Source: a virus (Duplodnaviria > Heunggongvirae > Uroviricota > Caudoviricetes). From it: DNA of 6,924 bases. Positions within the stretch are counted from its first letter, which is position 1; every line of letters starts with the position of its first letter. Under the pieces are notes generated by a model. The model was not told the DNA's origin. It made no database searches and was given only the letters and a program-made list of their open reading frames with translations. The position numbers were made by a program, and so were the translations under genes. Positions 1-6,895 of the stretch are shown one piece after another. The stretch lies in IMG/VR virus record IMGVR_UViG_2541047432_000023, one strand, 5' to 3'.

Positions 1-204
1 ACAATGCCGCAGACCAGAGCGCCATCAGTCAGTACCAACATTATCCTGCTGGTGAAATCCATCATCACCATCACTAAAAGCAGGATCACAACAGCAAGCA
101 GACACAGTTTATAAAACAATGTTCAGGAAACGCATTCAGCATGCCTAAGGTTCTATTCCTACGAATAGCCAACTTGCAACTTAAAATATTATTTATGCAG
201 CCAA

Positions 205-963
205 TTAAATTCTGGTCCTTACAATATCAACCTGAAGATTCTTATCTTGTGCTGATTGATAAATGACAAACCTTTTACTACCTGCATTGAAAGAAGTAGA
301 CAAAACCAGACAATTATCATAACGAGCAAGAACATAATACCAACCATCATTATAATTAATCATTTCATATTCTTTCTTAAACTGTGGTTTGTAATATCCT
401 GTCAGAAATGAAAAAAGCCAGAAATATGCCACAAAAGCAATCATCACAATCTCAAAAAAATGTTTTTTTATAAATGGCTTATCATAGAAGCATGATACCG
501 ATAAAAATCGCCCATAAGATCTTATCGAAATTGTGACCGCCAGCGCAATCGCTGCTGACAGTAGCAAAAGAGGTACCTGAATCTTCTGTCTCAATATAGA
601 AAACTCAATAATTGCCGGCACAAACAATAATTCCACAGCAAAATAAAGGCGAAATACATTTAGCTCTTGCATAGAATGTTTTCTTTTCACTGCGAAAAAG
701 AATACAACACCAATACCCCAACCGATAAGAAATATAGCAATGACGATAACTGCAAAAAATAAACTTCTGGCAACATCATCAACACCTGCACCTACAATCC
801 ACCATGGGAAGCCGTAGTAAAAAGAAGTACCCCATCCATAGAAATAAGCACTCCCCCATCCAAGGCATCCCATGTAGGCAATAAAAAGTGAAGAACTCCT
901 GAGCAGCGCACCATCCTTCATAACCACCCCAATACAAGATGATAACATTGGCTTACAACTCAT
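205..963 (-). CDS. uncharacterised polytopic inner-membrane protein (about 5 predicted TM helices plus ~60 aa hydrophilic C-terminal tail); cargo gene downstream of Q
   Basis: ORF track, 252 aa. By eye there are about five hydrophobic helices (e.g. LFFAVIVIAIFLIGWGIGVVFFFAV, VPLLLLSAAIALAVTISI, FFEIVMIAFVAYFWLFSFLTGYY) followed by a polar tail (KPQFKKEYEMINYNDGWYYVLARYDNCLVLSTSFNAGSKRFVIYQSAQ...). The gene is visibly AT-rich compared with the flanking phage genes. I recognise no family. The start is uncertain: in-frame ATGs at 963, 921 and 873, none with a clean Shine-Dalgarno. Stop TAA at 205-207. Confidence 0.55.
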   Translation of the reverse strand: MSCKPMLSSCIGVVMKDGALLRSSSLFIAYMGCLGWGSAYFYGWGTSFYYGFPWWIVGAGVDDVARSLFFAVIVIAIFLIGWGIGVVFFFAVKRKHSMQELNVFRLYFAVELLFVPAIIEFSILRQKIQVPLLLLSAAIALAVTISIRSYGRFLSVSCFYDKPFIKKHFFEIVMIAFVAYFWLFSFLTGYYKPQFKKEYEMINYNDGWYYVLARYDNCLVLSTSFNAGSKRFVIYQSAQDKNLQVDIVRTRI

Positions 964-1057
964 AACAAAAGCAATTCAATGCCGTCAAGAGGTTACAGGC
1001 TAAAAAAACTCTATTACATAGCAGCCAGCATGTTTACCGTACAAGTACAACTCAGGG

Positions 1058-1089
1058 CATAAAAAAACCCACTCGGCAGCGGGTTTATA
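1058..1089 (-). terminator. candidate intrinsic terminator about 45 bp downstream of the Q-like gene (tR'-like)
   Basis: The minus-strand RNA reads AAACCCGC-UGCCGA-GUGGGUUU followed by a U-run (plus-strand A7 at 1061-1067). The stem is GC-rich with one G-U wobble. On the plus strand the same position is an A-C mismatch, so the structure favours minus-strand transcription. Confidence 0.5.
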
Positions 1090-1119
1090 CATTTTTTACA
1101 ACATACCAAATTTGCATGA

Positions 1120-1148
1120 AGTATATGGCTTTTAATCCAGTTTTGCAA
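1120..1148 (-). promoter_or_regulatory. candidate sigma70 promoter overlapping the 3' end of the Q-like gene (PR'-like late promoter)
   Basis: Minus strand: -35 TTGCAA (1143-1148), 17-nt spacer, -10 TATACT (1120-1125). With the terminator at 1058-1089 this predicts a short (about 50 nt) terminated leader, analogous in layout to lambda PR'/6S RNA/tR'. Hexamers identified by eye only. Confidence 0.3.
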
Positions 1149-1821
1149 TATTTTGCTGTAAAAATGCTGCCTTTTGTTTTGAACGTGTTCTCGTCACAAG
1201 CAATAAAGCATCACTATCAAGCTGTAGAAAAATGTGCTTCATTGCAACCCAGCGTTCAGTAAATGTCTCGGACCAGTTTTTTGTTGTCACTCCCACCAAT
1301 GATGCCAGTGTCTGGTATTCATAGGCCTCACGCCCTGCAAGTTCGCTCTTCACATCCTGTGCAGCCAGCCAGATTAACGTCTTCAGGCGATCCAGTGTCT
1401 TACCTGCAATTTTTCTGTTACTTAACAAATCTTTAAACTCGCTCCATGCCCATTGCGTTATGGTGACCTGATGCCCCCATCGAACGCTTTCGCTGTAACA
1501 CCAAAGCAACCATGCTTTCTGATGTTCATCGAGAGACAAAACCGCGCGGCGCCATGAAGAGGTTGAGAATTCAACCGGGCTGACCAAAGCAATGGATGAA
1601 CCTTTTGCGTACGACTGCTTACCGGAAGTCGGCGTATTATCCAGCGTAATCATCTTGCCAGTTACCACATCCAGAATGCGCGGCTTCTTTCGTTTGTATG
1701 TACCAGTATCAAATTGTGCATGCTCCAGCCAGGCTTCAAGCTGTCCTTTCGTTGCTCCGCTCAAATCAGCGGTAGCCACAATGAGTTGCTCGCGGACATA
1801 CTGTAAATATTGGGTATTCAT
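1132..1821 (-). CDS. putative late-gene antitermination protein (Q-like, non-lambda-Q type)
   Basis: ORF track, 229 aa. The ATG at 1821 overlaps the ylcG stop (ATGA). It sits directly after rusA-ylcG, where lambdoid phages carry Q, and a promoter-plus-terminator pair lies just downstream. The protein has a single Cys, so it cannot carry the Cys-rich zinc motif of lambda Q. Family assignment is by position and recall, not a search. Confidence 0.55.
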   Translation of the reverse strand: MNTQYLQYVREQLIVATADLSGATKGQLEAWLEHAQFDTGTYKRKKPRILDVVTGKMITLDNTPTSGKQSYAKGSSIALVSPVEFSTSSWRRAVLSLDEHQKAWLLWCYSESVRWGHQVTITQWAWSEFKDLLSNRKIAGKTLDRLKTLIWLAAQDVKSELAGREAYEYQTLASLVGVTTKNWSETFTERWVAMKHIFLQLDSDALLLVTRTRSKQKAAFLQQNIAKLD

Positions 1822-1958
1822 GCGGCAGCTCCTTTCAGTGTTTTGGCGTAATTCTTCAGTATCCGGTAATCGGTCAAAACAGAACCAGGAAAACGATATA
1901 AGCGCAGGCGCATCCAGCGGTGGCGAAGACGTTCTGCCATATAAGACTCAAACATCAT
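1818..1958 (-). CDS. ylcG: small YlcG-like phage protein (46 aa)
   Basis: Hand translation of the minus strand gives [46 protein letters not shown]. It is below the ORF-track size cutoff. Its start overlaps the rusA stop (ATGA) and its stop overlaps the Q-like start (ATGA). It resembles the DLP12 YlcG I recall from E. coli K-12. The N-terminal start could instead be the ATG at 1940. Confidence 0.6.
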
Positions 1959-3341: not shown

Positions 3342-3370
3342 GTCACCGGAGTTGTTCAAGCTCCGGTGAC
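3342..3370 (-). terminator. perfect 10-bp GC-rich inverted repeat (GTCACCGGAG-9 nt-CTCCGGTGAC), stem-loop A; candidate tR2-like terminator or operator
   Basis: Arms at 3342-3351 and 3361-3370 are exact reverse complements. On the minus-strand RNA the hairpin is followed by UUCUGCGCAUUU, only a partial U-tract. It lies between the island and ybcN, where lambda carries tR2 (position from memory). Confidence 0.3.
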
Positions 3371-3723: not shown

Positions 3724-5250
3724 TCAAAAATAAACCTCACCATCAACCATATATTTGAGAGCACTTATCGCCTGCTGGGCGGATATTACTTTCATTAAAG
3801 GATAGTGTTTAAAAACAATGCCATTCATAAAATAGATATCACAGGTTTTATTATCCGTATTAATTATGATTTTTTCGAATATTTTATAGGCAAGTGTACG
3901 GCATAACTCTCGTCCATTTTTACTGGTTAAGTCAATAGCATAAAAATCACTGAATGAATTTACACCTTTACTCTTCAAAGTTTTCAATGATACCAAAGCT
4001 CTTCGTAATTCCTTATCTAATAGTCTTATTTTCTCTGCTATAGCGGTAACTTCAGGCGCGACAGACAATGCAACGATTAAATTATTAATTTTCATCTGAA
4101 GCTCAATAATTTTTAACTCTAAAGTTTCATTAGCATCTTTCTTGTTTTCAACTGGTTGAATTTTGCTACAATTAAAAAGCAATTCATTAATGATATTATA
4201 ATCAACCAAATCTCTCTTTATTGATGGCCTGTCACATCGATGTAATCTTCTCATCGGACAAACATAATAGCCATGCAAACTTCCAGATACCGCATGAACA
4301 ATCATGGTATTACCACAAGCCTCACACTTCATAACTGTTCGAAGTAGATTTATTAGCATAGGATTCTTGCTACTATTGCTAATACCAAAAGGTGCCAACC
4401 GAATTTCCTGTACAGCGTAAAACAAATCATCTGATATGACTCTGGGATAATAGCCAGCGATTTCACTTATCCCTTTCCCTCTTGCACGATATGAAGGTAC
4501 GCATATACCTATCAGAGCTTTATTCGCTAATAATTTTTCAATTACAGAAGGCCCCCATGCACTTTCTTTTCCTGAGAAATTCTTTACAGCATGATCATTT
4601 AAATACTTGGCTATTGCATTCAATGAGCGCCTTTCCATCCTGAGTTTAAAAATTAGCTCAATAGTTTTCACCCTGTCGGGGTCTGGAACAAAAGCCGTTC
4701 TTTTGTCATCTAAGGAGAGCCATCTCGGACAAGACGCCGTCATAATCGTACCTGATTCCAGTGCATCCTGCCGTTTTTTCTTCCATGATAATTTAACCCG
4801 ACTTGACTTTATCTCGCTTTCTTCATTTGCCCTTTGTGCTATAAGTATGGCTTTTATTAATGAATATGGCTCATTCAAAGAGTCAATATTATAGACTGTA
4901 TTGTCGCAAAGAGTTATAACATCAATACCGTGATTCAAAATCAATTTCAGACGTTCAATCGCTTCACCGACTTTTTCTCTTGAAAGTCTGTCCAGACTTT
5001 CAACTAACAATGTAGTTCCTGGCAATATATAACCATGCTCTATAGCATCTAAAAATTCCGAAAAAGCTCCTGATTGTGCATGCTTTCCTTTGAATGCACT
5101 TAATCCTAAATCTTCATATGTTATGGTATCAAGATAATAATCACTATTTACCTTTAACCATTCAGCAATAAGTCTTCTCTGTCGGTTTAATGAGTCGCCA
5201 GACATCTGACCTGGTGATGAAAATCGCATATATGCTATGGCTTTTTTCAT
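3724..5250 (-). CDS. ybcK: large serine recombinase (resolvase/invertase catalytic domain + recombinase domain + zinc ribbon), YbcK-like
   Basis: ORF track, 508 aa. N-terminal serine-recombinase motifs: AIAYMRFSSPGQ (catalytic Ser region), SLNRQ and ESLDRLSRE. Cys-rich zinc ribbon further on (CEACGNTMIVHAVSGSLHGYYVCPMRRLHRCD). Coiled-coil-like C-terminal region. SD AGGTG 6 nt before the ATG at 5250. Strongly AT-rich. Resembles DLP12 YbcK as I recall it. Confidence 0.85.
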   Translation of the reverse strand: MKKAIAYMRFSSPGQMSGDSLNRQRRLIAEWLKVNSDYYLDTITYEDLGLSAFKGKHAQSGAFSEFLDAIEHGYILPGTTLLVESLDRLSREKVGEAIERLKLILNHGIDVITLCDNTVYNIDSLNEPYSLIKAILIAQRANEESEIKSSRVKLSWKKKRQDALESGTIMTASCPRWLSLDDKRTAFVPDPDRVKTIELIFKLRMERRSLNAIAKYLNDHAVKNFSGKESAWGPSVIEKLLANKALIGICVPSYRARGKGISEIAGYYPRVISDDLFYAVQEIRLAPFGISNSSKNPMLINLLRTVMKCEACGNTMIVHAVSGSLHGYYVCPMRRLHRCDRPSIKRDLVDYNIINELLFNCSKIQPVENKKDANETLELKIIELQMKINNLIVALSVAPEVTAIAEKIRLLDKELRRALVSLKTLKSKGVNSFSDFYAIDLTSKNGRELCRTLAYKIFEKIIINTDNKTCDIYFMNGIVFKHYPLMKVISAQQAISALKYMVDGEVYF

Positions 5251-5494
5251 GGTGACACCTGCTAACTTATGCTTTTATAAACCTTAGTGGTGAGATATAA
5301 TTTTTGTTTAATTTTTATTTAAAAAGACAATTACGATCACACTATCTTGAATATACAACAATAATCGTATTGCAATTTGCTTACGCAATAATCTTGAAGG
5401 CACAAAAGAATACACAAAAACTAAAAACATTAACAAAAGCGGCCCATGTAAAGATATGAACCGCCATATTGCAGTCTTTTAAAAGAAATTATTT

Positions 5495-5827
5495 TTAATG
5501 TGGTGTGCTTCGTGACAATAAATTAATAACCAACACACCGGCACAAATCAACATCATGCCTATAACGGCTGGCAGGTCCAGCCGTTGGCCGAAAAACCCC
5601 CATGATAGTAAGCTAATCAGGACAATACCGACTCCTGACCAGATAGCATAAGCAATCCCTGTAGGAATATAAGCCAGCGTCTGAGCTAATAACCAGAATG
5701 ATGCACAATAACAAATAATTGTACCAACAGATGGCCATAACCGTGTAAAACCTTCTGAAAACTTCATTAAGGTTGTACCAATGACCTCTGCAAGTATTGC
5801 ACCACCAAGATAAATATAAGGGTTCAT
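5495..5827 (-). CDS. emrE: small multidrug resistance (SMR) family efflux transporter EmrE
   Basis: The ORF-track frame 5495..5881 contains MNPYIYLGGAILAEVIGTTLMKFSEGFTRLWPSVGTIICYCASFWLLAQTLAYIPTGIAYAIWSGVGIVLISLLSWGFFGQRLDLPAVIGMMLICAGVLVINLLSRSTPH, 110 aa from the internal ATG at 5827. That ATG is preceded by AGGAAAG. Near-identical to my recollection of E. coli EmrE, which is known to lie in the DLP12 prophage. Confidence 0.93.
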   Translation of the reverse strand: MNPYIYLGGAILAEVIGTTLMKFSEGFTRLWPSVGTIICYCASFWLLAQTLAYIPTGIAYAIWSGVGIVLISLLSWGFFGQRLDLPAVIGMMLICAGVLVINLLSRSTPH

Positions 5828-5842
5828 AACATATTCTTTCCT

Positions 5843-5877
5843 GTTCAAACTGGAGAGAATTGTACTACAGTTTGAAC
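5843..5877. promoter_or_regulatory. perfect 10-bp inverted repeat (GTTCAAACTG-15 nt-CAGTTTGAAC) just upstream of emrE; candidate operator or 5'-UTR structure
   Basis: Read directly from the sequence. Arms at 5843-5852 and 5868-5877 are exact reverse complements. It lies in the 67-bp gap between the ren stop and the emrE start. Confidence 0.4.
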
Positions 5878-5894
5878 TCAACTCACCTGTTTCA

Positions 5895-6197
5895 TCATTG
5901 TGTACCCATTGATGTTCTTTTATATACCCTCAATACCCGTTTCATCGCGGCACTCTGGCGACACTCCTTAAAAATCAGATTCGTGCTCACCTTTCCTTCC
6001 CGTTCTTCTCTGGTAGCGAACCGGTAATACACCGTTCGCCAGACCTTACCATCAACGACCAGGATTCCTGCCCGCGCCATTTTAGCCGCAGCCTGATTTA
6101 TGCTGGTTACGGTTGCACCTGTTACCGCGGCAACGTCCTGTGCACAGAAGCTCTTATGCGTCCCCAGGTAATGAATAATTGCCTCTTTGCCCGTCAT
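5895..6197 (-). CDS. ren: Ren protein (lambda Ren homologue, relief from Rex exclusion)
   Basis: ORF track, 100 aa (MTGKEAIIHYLGTHKSFCAQDVAAVTGATVTSINQAAAKMARAGILVVDGKVWRTVYYRFATREEREGK...). Closely matches lambda Ren as I recall it, except the last ~10 residues. The ATG at 6197 overlaps the P stop (ATGA). Confidence 0.85.
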   Translation of the reverse strand: MTGKEAIIHYLGTHKSFCAQDVAAVTGATVTSINQAAAKMARAGILVVDGKVWRTVYYRFATREEREGKVSTNLIFKECRQSAAMKRVLRVYKRTSMGTQ

Positions 6198-6895
6198 ACA
6201 CTTGCTCCTTTCAGTCCGAACTTAGCTTTAATTTCTGCGATCTTCGCCAGAGCCTGTGCACGATTTAGAGGTCTACCGCCCATAACAGGAAGTTGTTTTA
6301 CTGGTTCAGGTATCGTCTCACCACGGTTAATTCGCGCTGTCATACAGGTCAGTTCATCGGCAGCCTTGCGCCGTAATTCCGCGTCAGTCAGCGCATTGGC
6401 CCGCATGTTCTGGTACAAGTTGGTAACCAACCAGTAATGCGCGTTCGATTTCCACGGATAAGACTCTGCATCCGGATACAGGCCACGCTTCCTGCAATAC
6501 TCGTAAACCATATCAACCAGCTCGCTGACGTTTGGCAGTCCGGCGATAACGGATGCTTCTTCCCGGCACCATGCAACAAACTGCCCGGGTGATGGAAGAA
6601 ATGGTCGATTCTGCCGACGGGCTACGCGCATTCCTGCGTTAACCTGTTCCATCGAGGTGATCCCGTTTTCCCGGAAAGCCAGAACCCACTGGCGGCGGAT
6701 TTCGTTCAGTTCGTTCTGGTCACGGTTAGCCAGACTCGCCGGGAAAGTTGCCAGTAACTGGCTGAACACACCGTTGATGATCTGCGCTACCTGCTGTACC
6801 TGCGGCTTTTCGTCGTACTGTTCCGGCATGTTGTTGGCGATCCGACGCATCTGCTCACGGTCAAAGTTAACCATCTGTGCGGCGATGTTTTTCAT
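6194..6895 (-). CDS. P: replication protein P (lambda P, DnaB helicase loader)
   Basis: ORF track, 233 aa (MKNIAAQMVNFDREQMRRIANNMPEQYDEKPQVQQVAQIINGVFSQLLATFPASLANRDQNELNEIRRQWVLAFRENGIT...). Near-identical to lambda P as I recall it, and the same length. Confidence 0.95.
   Translation of the reverse strand: MKNIAAQMVNFDREQMRRIANNMPEQYDEKPQVQQVAQIINGVFSQLLATFPASLANRDQNELNEIRRQWVLAFRENGITSMEQVNAGMRVARRQNRPFLPSPGQFVAWCREEASVIAGLPNVSELVDMVYEYCRKRGLYPDAESYPWKSNAHYWLVTNLYQNMRANALTDAELRRKAADELTCMTARINRGETIPEPVKQLPVMGGRPLNRAQALAKIAEIKAKFGLKGASV

Follow-up and report, generated by a model that had tools for sequence, protein, structure and literature searches.

A putative Q82-family late-gene antitermination unit with a short leader, downstream of an intact Q gene in a lambdoid prophage segment

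The region that follows the Q gene in the DNA analysed here probably supplies the cis-acting sites of a late-gene antitermination cassette of the Q82 family, a reading to which we assign a probability of about 0.85 on the basis of sequence comparison. Such cassettes are defined by a Q gene, the PR' promoter, a sigma-dependent pause element, a terminator, and the late genes (PMC9388147). The window (the whole stretch of 6,924 nt that was analysed) has the first four of these parts in the same order, from the Q gene to the terminator. The unit is an already known kind of element, and the window carries the compact allele common to phage 434 and O157 prophages. A first-pass annotation of this DNA had suggested the architecture of a Q-utilisation unit, with promoter, pause, and tR'. 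This proposal appears to hold, since the elements lie where the features of the phage 82 pR' predict them and recur after genes selected by Q homology.

Every substantial ORF of the window is on the minus strand, as judged from the ORF list and profile searches. In transcription order, the genes encode the lambda P replication protein (6194-6895), EmrE (emrE, 5495-5881), and a large serine recombinase (3724-5250), followed by NinB-like, ninE-like, and YbcO genes, RusA (1955-2317), and a YlcG-sized ORF. The Q antiterminator gene comes next (1132..1821), and the first ORF past tR' (205..963) encodes a predicted membrane protein of 252 aa. A small unassigned ORF lies between the lambda P gene and emrE. 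From its gene content, and from the match of its Q protein to phage 82 Q, the window was identified as the nin-to-Q segment of a lambdoid prophage with a Q82-type antiterminator. The host prophage carries cargo genes (emrE and the large serine recombinase) and may be in a cryptic state; the unit is therefore perhaps no longer in control of a working late operon here. The window stops about 1 kb past the terminator; what it covers of the downstream region is the membrane-protein gene and the first part of a DUF3927-type gene. The AT-rich membrane-protein gene, which had been proposed as the first to be read under Q antitermination, is the first ORF downstream of the terminator. Its GC content is 0.30-0.38, compared to 0.46-0.57 in Q and the upstream genes. 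The encoded protein belongs to phrog_1521 (function unknown; E = 2e-154), and no match to it was found in Pfam.

The product of the Q gene is an intact protein of 229 aa. It matches PF06323 (Phage_antiter_Q) over profile positions 1-216 of 220 (E = 2.4e-92) and phrog_304, annotated as 'anti-termination protein Q-like' (E = 7e-109). Moreover, 208 of its 229 residues (90.8%) are identical to those of phage 82 Q from record X92588, in an alignment free of gaps. The Q-like gene noted upstream of the promoter is thus a full-length antiterminator of the Q82 family, which corresponds to PF06323 and is one of three unrelated Q families (PMC9388147). A PDB sequence search with the Q protein of the window gave no meaningful match. 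Structures exist for Q21 and Q-lambda and none for the Q82 family, and whether Q82 also uses the nozzle mechanism has been named a research priority (PMC9388147).

On the minus strand, the sequence across the 3' end of Q is ...ATT GCA AAA CTG GAT TAA AAGCCATATACTTCATGCAAATTTGGTATGTTGTAAAAAATGTATAAACCCGCTGCCGAGTGGGTTTTTTTATGCC..., and a consensus scan places a sigma-70 promoter across this junction. The -35 hexamer TTGCAA (1143..1148), which is its own reverse complement, is followed by a 17-nt spacer (1126..1142) and the -10 hexamer TATACT (1120..1125). Because the Q stop codon occupies 1134-1132, within the spacer, the -35 hexamer lies in the last Q codons (I-A-K) and the -10 hexamer just past the stop. 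All elements of the suggested promoter, TTGCAA-17-TATACT overlapping the end of the Q gene, are therefore present between 1148 and 1120 of the minus strand. At the level of sequence, this is the direct overlap of a sigma-70 promoter with the end of Q that is expected of a Q82-family cassette. The Q-binding element (QBE) sits between the -35 and -10 elements (PMC4914094), and the spacer is the expected site for it by position only. Taken by themselves, the hexamers do not exceed chance expectation: the promoter has a match quality of 9/12, and 15 such sites were found in the window, with 14.9 ± 4.1 expected in shuffled sequences. The significance of the promoter comes instead from comparative data. 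A composite pattern was built from the invariant columns of an alignment of related loci (TTGCAAAA-N16-ATAYTT-N-A-N4-A-N-T-N-TG-N-TAT), and this pattern has one match in the window and none in 200 shuffled sequences.

The most informative comparison is with phage 82 itself. The pause element of the 82 pR' is closer to TATAAT than that of lambda and includes an extended -10 motif (Bird et al., PMC5001585). It is followed by a discriminator-like GCC at +15 to +17 and an AT-rich stretch before the pause, which occurs at +25 (a U) and +26 (PMC5001585). No separate record of the phage 82 late region was found, and X92588 stops at the Q stop codon. L233, a locus from the Q-homology collection that encodes a protein 100% identical to phage 82 Q, was used as a proxy. 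The DNA downstream of its Q reads TTGCAA-AACTGGATTAAAAAGCA-TATATT-TCATAT-AAATCTGATATTTTGCCAATGTTGTAC... When the A seven bases past its -10 hexamer is taken as +1, L233 has TG at +6/+7, TATTTT at +9 to +14, GCC at +15 to +17, and T at +25. The +1 numbering is considered sound because L233 agrees with two independent published landmarks of phage 82 at once. The window aligns with L233 base for base up to +14, with identical -35/-10 spacing; the two spacers differ at 2 of 17 positions, the QBE in them being placed by position only.

In this register, the predicted transcription start of the window is A1113, 7 nt past the -10 hexamer. The start near 1113 that had been suggested is thus a plausible one, as it puts the -10-like hexamer at +9 to +14 and a U at +25. 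The putative sigma-dependent pause element is the extended -10-like sequence TGGTATGTT (1100..1108, minus strand), which spans +6 to +14 with TG at 1108-1107 and TATGTT at 1105-1100. By the 82 register, the predicted pause positions are U+25 (1089) and A+26 (1088). The window therefore shares with phage 82 the same -35 hexamer, the 17-nt spacer, a near-identical -10 hexamer, the start region, the extended -10-like element at +6 to +14, and U+25. It differs at +15 to +17 (1097..1099), where GTA is found instead of the GCC of phage 82.

Further searches examined how widely this arrangement recurs. When window positions 940-1300 were compared by BLAST to annotated phages, relatives that align through the 3' end of Q were found among E. 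coli, Klebsiella, Enterobacter, and Salmonella phages. In most E. coli phages, homology ends at query position 202, which corresponds to about 1099 in the window, 33 nt past the Q stop and just after the -10-like element. Because homology stops at this point, Q, the promoter, and the pause element look as if they were inherited as one specificity module. In nine aligned regions, TTGCAAAA is invariant, NATAYT follows 17 nt on, the start region is conserved, and TG-N-TAT is invariant; a GC-rich hairpin with a T-run lies further downstream in 9/9. The composite pattern was found at 55 loci in species-representative genomes, nearly all of them from Enterobacterales, and in at least 120 viral contigs. 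Of 184 motif-selected sites, 171 have a Q homolog that ends at the promoter, 133 share the stop codon offset of the window, and 168 have T at +25.

Since these sites were selected by motif, loci were also gathered by Q protein homology alone, and their promoter regions were then examined. All close relatives of the window Q (89-98% identity) carry the promoter and pause element; the strict pattern missed 14 of 80, which have a -10 of TATGCT and are variants rather than absences. In RothC-type loci, whose Q is 66% identical to that of the window, 45 out of 48 distinct sequences carry TTGCAA-17-NATAYT, and the terminators lie near +46, +72, and +92. The same promoter arrangement is present in 43 of 44 distinct Flotzy-type loci, where Q is 34% identical; most of these have an extended -10-like element, and their terminator stems end at +45 to +48. 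Overall, the extended -10-like element is present in most of the Q-selected loci. Moreover, in the Flotzy type about 33 nt separate the end of the Q gene from the -35 hexamer. The conservation of TTGCAA is thus not a coding constraint, because in these loci the hexamer lies outside Q.

These data bear on the simplest alternative, in which the hairpin would be the mere end of the delayed-early transcript that includes Q, and TTGCAA and TATACT would be a chance resemblance with no promoter activity. Such a reading would agree with the frequency of similar promoter matches in shuffled sequence, with terminators after the last gene of an operon being commonplace, and with the phage 434 record, which has the terminator and no promoter. 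However, chance does not account for a -35 hexamer, a 17-nt spacing, a -10 hexamer, a start region, and an extended -10-like element that are kept down to 34% Q identity, for a register that matches the published numbering of the 82 pR', or for the absence of the composite pattern from the shuffles. The two roles of the terminator are also compatible, as the hairpin would stop unmodified polymerases arriving from upstream as well. This alternative is therefore regarded as extremely improbable.

A second alternative concerns the other strand. Lambda has a CII-dependent antisense promoter inside Q. In the window, the TTGCAA could be part of a plus-strand antisense promoter (paQ) activated by CII, which would replace pR' or exist alongside it; the two readings share bases because TTGCAA is its own reverse complement. 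In the phage 434 record, the sequence TTGCAATATTTTGC, which lies at 1143-1156 (plus strand) in the window, is annotated as a CII site together with a paQ -35. It has the form TTGC-N6-TTGC, in agreement with the CII consensus of the 434 annotators (TTGY-N6-TTGY), and the second half-site is present in 20/20 distinct sequences of the 82/434 type. This second half-site, however, lies in Q codons. It was found in 0/32 Flotzy-type and 0/26 RothC-type sequences and is missing from 48 of 54 genome sites, although TTGCAA is kept in all of the Flotzy-type, RothC-type, and genome sequences compared. Because the second half-site is missing outside the 82/434 type, a CII site cannot explain the family-wide conservation of TTGCAA. 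Moreover, inspection of the sequence by eye revealed no acceptable plus-strand -10 at a distance like that of lambda pRE, and the CII gene lies outside the window. A CII-dependent role for the hexamer is thus considered unlikely, although the E. coli lineage may have an antisense promoter in addition.

The terminator of the proposed unit, tR', was identified by scanning and folding at 1061..1086 (minus strand). Its stem spans +31 to +46 and its T7 tract +47 to +53. The core stem is formed by CCCGCU (1083-1078) and AGUGGG (1073-1068) around the loop GCCG; with three further A-U pairs it can reach 1086/1065 and then comprises 9 pairs, 4 of them G-C, with a loop of 4. The GC-rich hairpin and the U7 tract of the first-pass annotation were both found, whereas its lower limit of 1058 needs correction, as the T7 tract occupies 1067-1061 and is followed by A-T-G, ending 3 nt short of that limit. 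The spacing of about 50 nt from promoter to hairpin agrees with a U-tract that ends at +53 from A1113. An intrinsic terminator thus separates the predicted pause site from the genes downstream. Terminator-like sites as such number 9 in the window, with 5.0 ± 2.3 expected. The leader RNA from +1 to +58 folds with -15.3 kcal/mol (z = -3.09 compared to shuffles), and the tR' hairpin is present in both the minimum free energy and the centroid structures. In this fold, the 5' part of the leader is AU-rich and mostly unpaired, and is followed by the terminator hairpin and the U7 tail. A 44-aa ORF that crosses both promoter and terminator (1014-1148, minus strand) was rejected as a gene; it has a TTG start, runs through the terminator, and is unannotated in phage 434 and EDL933.

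Leaders of this length are found elsewhere in the family. Among 154 distinct motif-selected sequences, the terminators lie at three discrete distances (about +47, +72, and +92), and the leaders were divided into a short class with stem ends at +47 to +51 by the class script's own count (n=38), a middle class at +64 to +80 (n=89), and a long class at about +93 and beyond (n=21). The window falls in the short class, whose other members come from Escherichia, Enterobacter, Kluyvera, Klebsiella, Rahnella, Providencia, Morganella, Mixta, and Erwinia. By this comparison, a short leader is normal within the Q82 family. When 66 distinct leaders of the short class were folded, 64 gave a stable hairpin (about -10 to -15 kcal/mol) at this position. 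The stems vary by lineage and include CCCGCU/AGUGGG, CCCGCC/GGCGGG, CCUCGC/GCGGGG, GCCCACC/GGUGGGC, and CUUCAC/GUGAGG; between lineages the sequence changes while position and stability are kept. Stem conservation was judged from per-sequence folds, as the MAFFT columns had combined two families of stems with unlike pairing registers. For relatives with longer leaders, RNAalifold gave no consensus helix, and the z-scores of per-sequence folds are only suggestive.

The 82-type leaders belong to these longer forms. In L233, the leader is about 80 nt long and the stem ends at about +75, compared to +46 in the window, whose leader is about 24 nt shorter. The window lacks the loop and 3' arm of a stem-loop that 82-type leaders can form. 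Homology ends near 1099, and beyond this point the terminator and the genes that follow have no sequence relationship to those of the 82 type. The other difference from phage 82 is the GTA at +15 to +17. Among the 184 motif-selected sites, GCC is found at this position in 95, CGC in 61, GTC in 14, and GTA in 9, and within this set GTA is limited to sequences of the window/434 type. In the 82 pR', single changes in GCC shorten the pause half-life about 2-fold and the change of GCC to AAA about 5-fold (PMC5001585). Because GTA replaces the pause-supporting GCC, the pause of the window may be weaker or displaced. A further consequence follows from the short leader. As the terminator stem starts 6 nt past the predicted pause, a paused polymerase would sit over the terminator DNA, and Q would have about 28 nt of RNA synthesis in which to act. 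Neither the GTA nor the closeness of the stem contradicts the cassette model.

The closest relatives of the window place the unit in its wider gene order. Phage 434 (OL657226.1) is 99.7% identical over window 940-1300 and has the same Q, promoter, pause element, terminator, and membrane-protein gene, with a T8 tail in place of T7. In its record the terminator is annotated, pR' is not, and the membrane gene is listed as a putative membrane protein; TciB/DUF3927 follows this gene, and then more cargo genes up to the end of the stretch compared. The late genes of phage 434 presumably depend on this near-identical segment. A prophage of O157:H7 EDL933 is 98.5% identical over window 1-1900, and its pR' is likewise unannotated. 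Its gene order is Q, the membrane-protein gene, DUF3927, a class II holin, the RrrD lysozyme, Rz, terminase, and portal. Judged by the gene order of EDL933 and 434, the unit would head a late operon in which inserted cargo genes separate tR' from the lysis genes. Upstream of ylcG/Q the relatives diverge: the window has rusA, ybcO, ninE, the NinB-like gene, the serine recombinase, and emrE, whereas 434 and EDL933 have ninG, a phosphatase, a lambda-Q fragment, and lpxR. The module is widespread, as 618 of 5,426 complete E. coli genomes contain at least 80% of window 1-1900.

The same regulatory logic is known from phages with other Q families. Lambda also has a constitutive promoter after Q, a QBE, a sigma-70 pause, a terminator, and late genes (PMC9388147, PMC4914094). 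However, lambda Q belongs to the unrelated family PF03589, and lambda pauses at +16/+17 from a -10-like element at +1 to +6 (PMC5001585). As the first-pass annotation had stated, the leader of the window is much shorter than that of lambda; it would be about 53 nt, compared to termination at +193 in lambda, a leader about 3.6 times as long (PMC4914094). Assignment to the lambda-type 6S leader class (pR' to tR' about 194 nt) was considered and rejected, as the window has a PF06323 Q, a pause element at +6 to +14, and a U-tract that ends at +53. Phage 21, whose Q belongs to PF06530, has the same cassette organisation and regulatory function, with no sequence similarity between the Q proteins (PMC9388147).

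By analogy with phage 82 biochemistry, from which the start site, the pause, the binding of Q, and Q-dependent read-through are all taken, the unit would work as follows. The sigma-70 RNA polymerase would start at pR' (+1 near 1113) with or without Q. Sigma region 2 would then re-bind the extended -10-like element at +6 to +14, and the scrunched complex would pause at about +25/+26 (1089/1088). Without Q, the polymerase would escape and be released about 28 nt later at tR' (+51 to +55), leaving the leader RNA of about 53 nt. Once Q has accumulated, it would bind its DNA site in the promoter spacer, engage the paused complex, and travel along with the polymerase. The Q-modified polymerase would ignore tR' and later terminators and so transcribe the membrane-protein gene; in complete relatives, it would go on to the genes for lysis and morphogenesis.

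A leader made constitutively in lysogens raises the question of a second function, namely that the RNA of about 53 nt also acts in trans as a small regulatory RNA, like StxS of Shiga-toxin phages. StxS is likewise the constitutive, terminated leader of a late promoter in E. coli prophages (PMC7547250). In lysogens, pR' promoters fire constitutively, and a 74-nt Hfq-dependent sRNA is processed from the Stx leader. Late leaders have been proposed as a general source of sRNAs, with short late-promoter RNAs cited for phages 21, phi80, 82, and P22 (PMC7547250). An AU-rich, mostly unpaired 5' part in front of a hairpin and U7 tail would suit such a role, although this is an architectural likeness only, and the module is widespread among E. 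coli genomes. On the other hand, PR' and tR' of Stx phages are 258 nt apart, the 74-nt RNA results from RNase E processing, and it is there that the function in trans was shown (PMC7547250). A scan of the whole window gave no match in Rfam at E ≤ 1, which places the leader outside the curated RNA families, and the leader sequence string was not found in the searchable full-text literature. Moreover, the bases before the hairpin are nearly all accounted for by the pause element, the AT-rich segment before the pause, and the pause site, which leaves little free sequence for an sRNA seed. A trans-acting role for this leader is thus judged very unlikely.

A stronger form of the cassette reading can also be put forward, in which the window holds a minimal natural Q82 cassette that still pauses and loads Q efficiently without the GC-rich +15 to +17 element and whose leader is possibly a trans-acting sRNA as well. 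This combination is distinctly unlikely. If it were true, the loading of Q82 would proceed without the GCC element and resistance to termination would be established within about 28 nt of RNA synthesis, which would bear on the question whether Q82 works as a closed RNA-exit nozzle (PMC9388147).

For the Q82 family, the cassette reading gives exact coordinates for pR', the pause element, the predicted pause site, and tR' in a widespread module for which annotation had covered only Q and, in 434, the terminator. Across the family, an invariant core of promoter and pause element emerges, combined with three terminator distances, and this natural variation could guide experiments on the mechanism of Q82. 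For the prophage, it predicts that the membrane-protein gene would be silent from pR' in the lysogen and would be switched on together with the late genes.

The transcript from the predicted late promoter pR' (inferred +1 at A1113, minus strand) has relatives with longer leaders, which fall into classes by the distance of the terminator from +1. In the middle and the long class, the RNA from +9 to +18 (the -10-like/discriminator segment) is able to pair with that from +28 to +38. The helix is predicted in 88 of 145 distinct leaders, among them those of L233 (the proxy for phage 82, having an identical Q protein) and of three further Q82-type loci, L003, L005, and L006. Its arms vary by subfamily, being UUGCCA/UGGCAG in the 82 type and GUCG/CGAC, UAUGCUGCC/GGCGGCAUG or UGCCAUCAG/UUGGUGGCA elsewhere, and the symmetry centre of the predicted stem-loop is close to the +25 pause site. 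This stem-loop is absent from the window, which compared with the 82 type is missing about 24 nt, namely the loop and the 3' arm. Among the longer-leader relatives RNAalifold returned no helix in a common register, and folding of the individual sequences gave z-scores with a median of -1.7 (below -2 in 7 of 20). Formal support for the putative stem-loop in the middle and long classes is weak.

The terminator tR' (1061-1086, minus strand) is itself variable. Its T-run (1061-1067 in the window; also seen in the relatives L184 and L194) differs in length among near-identical copies: 14 loci have T7 as in the window, 34 have T8, phage 434 being one of them, and a single locus has T9. In one copy, L228, the stem is weakened by GUGG in place of GUGGG. 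Among the matches to the conserved pattern, enterobacterial Q82-type cassettes were found in L010, a 795-bp contig assigned to the actinobacterium Kocuria sabuli, and in L040, a Geobacteraceae MAG; both probably reflect contamination or mis-binning. Two matches in Firmicutes MAGs (L028 and L047) have neither a Q gene nor a terminator in register and look like chance pattern matches.

Downstream of tR' lies an AT-rich ORF (205-963, minus strand; GC 0.30-0.38) which belongs to phrog_1521 and has no Pfam match. Its homologues in related prophages are located between tR' and the lysis genes, and it looks like cargo. ATG codons at 963, 948 and 921 are all candidate starts, of which the phage 434 annotation uses 948. 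A TG-extended, promoter-like site occupies 968-939 (minus strand), from which Q-independent expression of the ORF may be possible. Two further motifs match the consensus that the annotators of phage 434 applied to CII sites; the record of that phage includes paQ -35 and CII sites. TTGT-N6-TTGT (955-968, minus strand) is found directly before this predicted membrane-protein gene, and TTGC-N6-TTGC (1143-1156, plus strand, opposite Q) shares bases with the pR' -35 element. Conservation of the second half-site of the latter is confined to the 82/434 lineage of E. coli.

Upstream, emrE, encoding a small multidrug resistance pump, and a gene for a 508-aa large serine recombinase (together 3724-5881, minus strand) have the replication genes on one side and the nin region on the other, as in DLP12-like prophages. 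The strongest hairpin in the window (3342-3370, plus strand; 12 pairs, 7 of them G-C) separates the NinB-like gene from the small upstream ORFs and has no T-run after it. The phage 434 and O157:H7 EDL933 prophages have the Q module in common with the window, whereas their nin region is different, containing a lambda-Q fragment and lpxR.

BLAST against annotated phages revealed a mosaic joint, a break in homology at about position 1099 (minus strand, +15), directly 3' of the -10-like hexamer. Homology with 82-type, PPompW and Stx2a-converting phages spans the 3' end of Q, the promoter, and the pause element up to this point. That it ends right after the hexamer suggests that recombination splits a module carrying Q, QBE (Q-binding element) and pause specificity from a module made up of the terminator and cargo.
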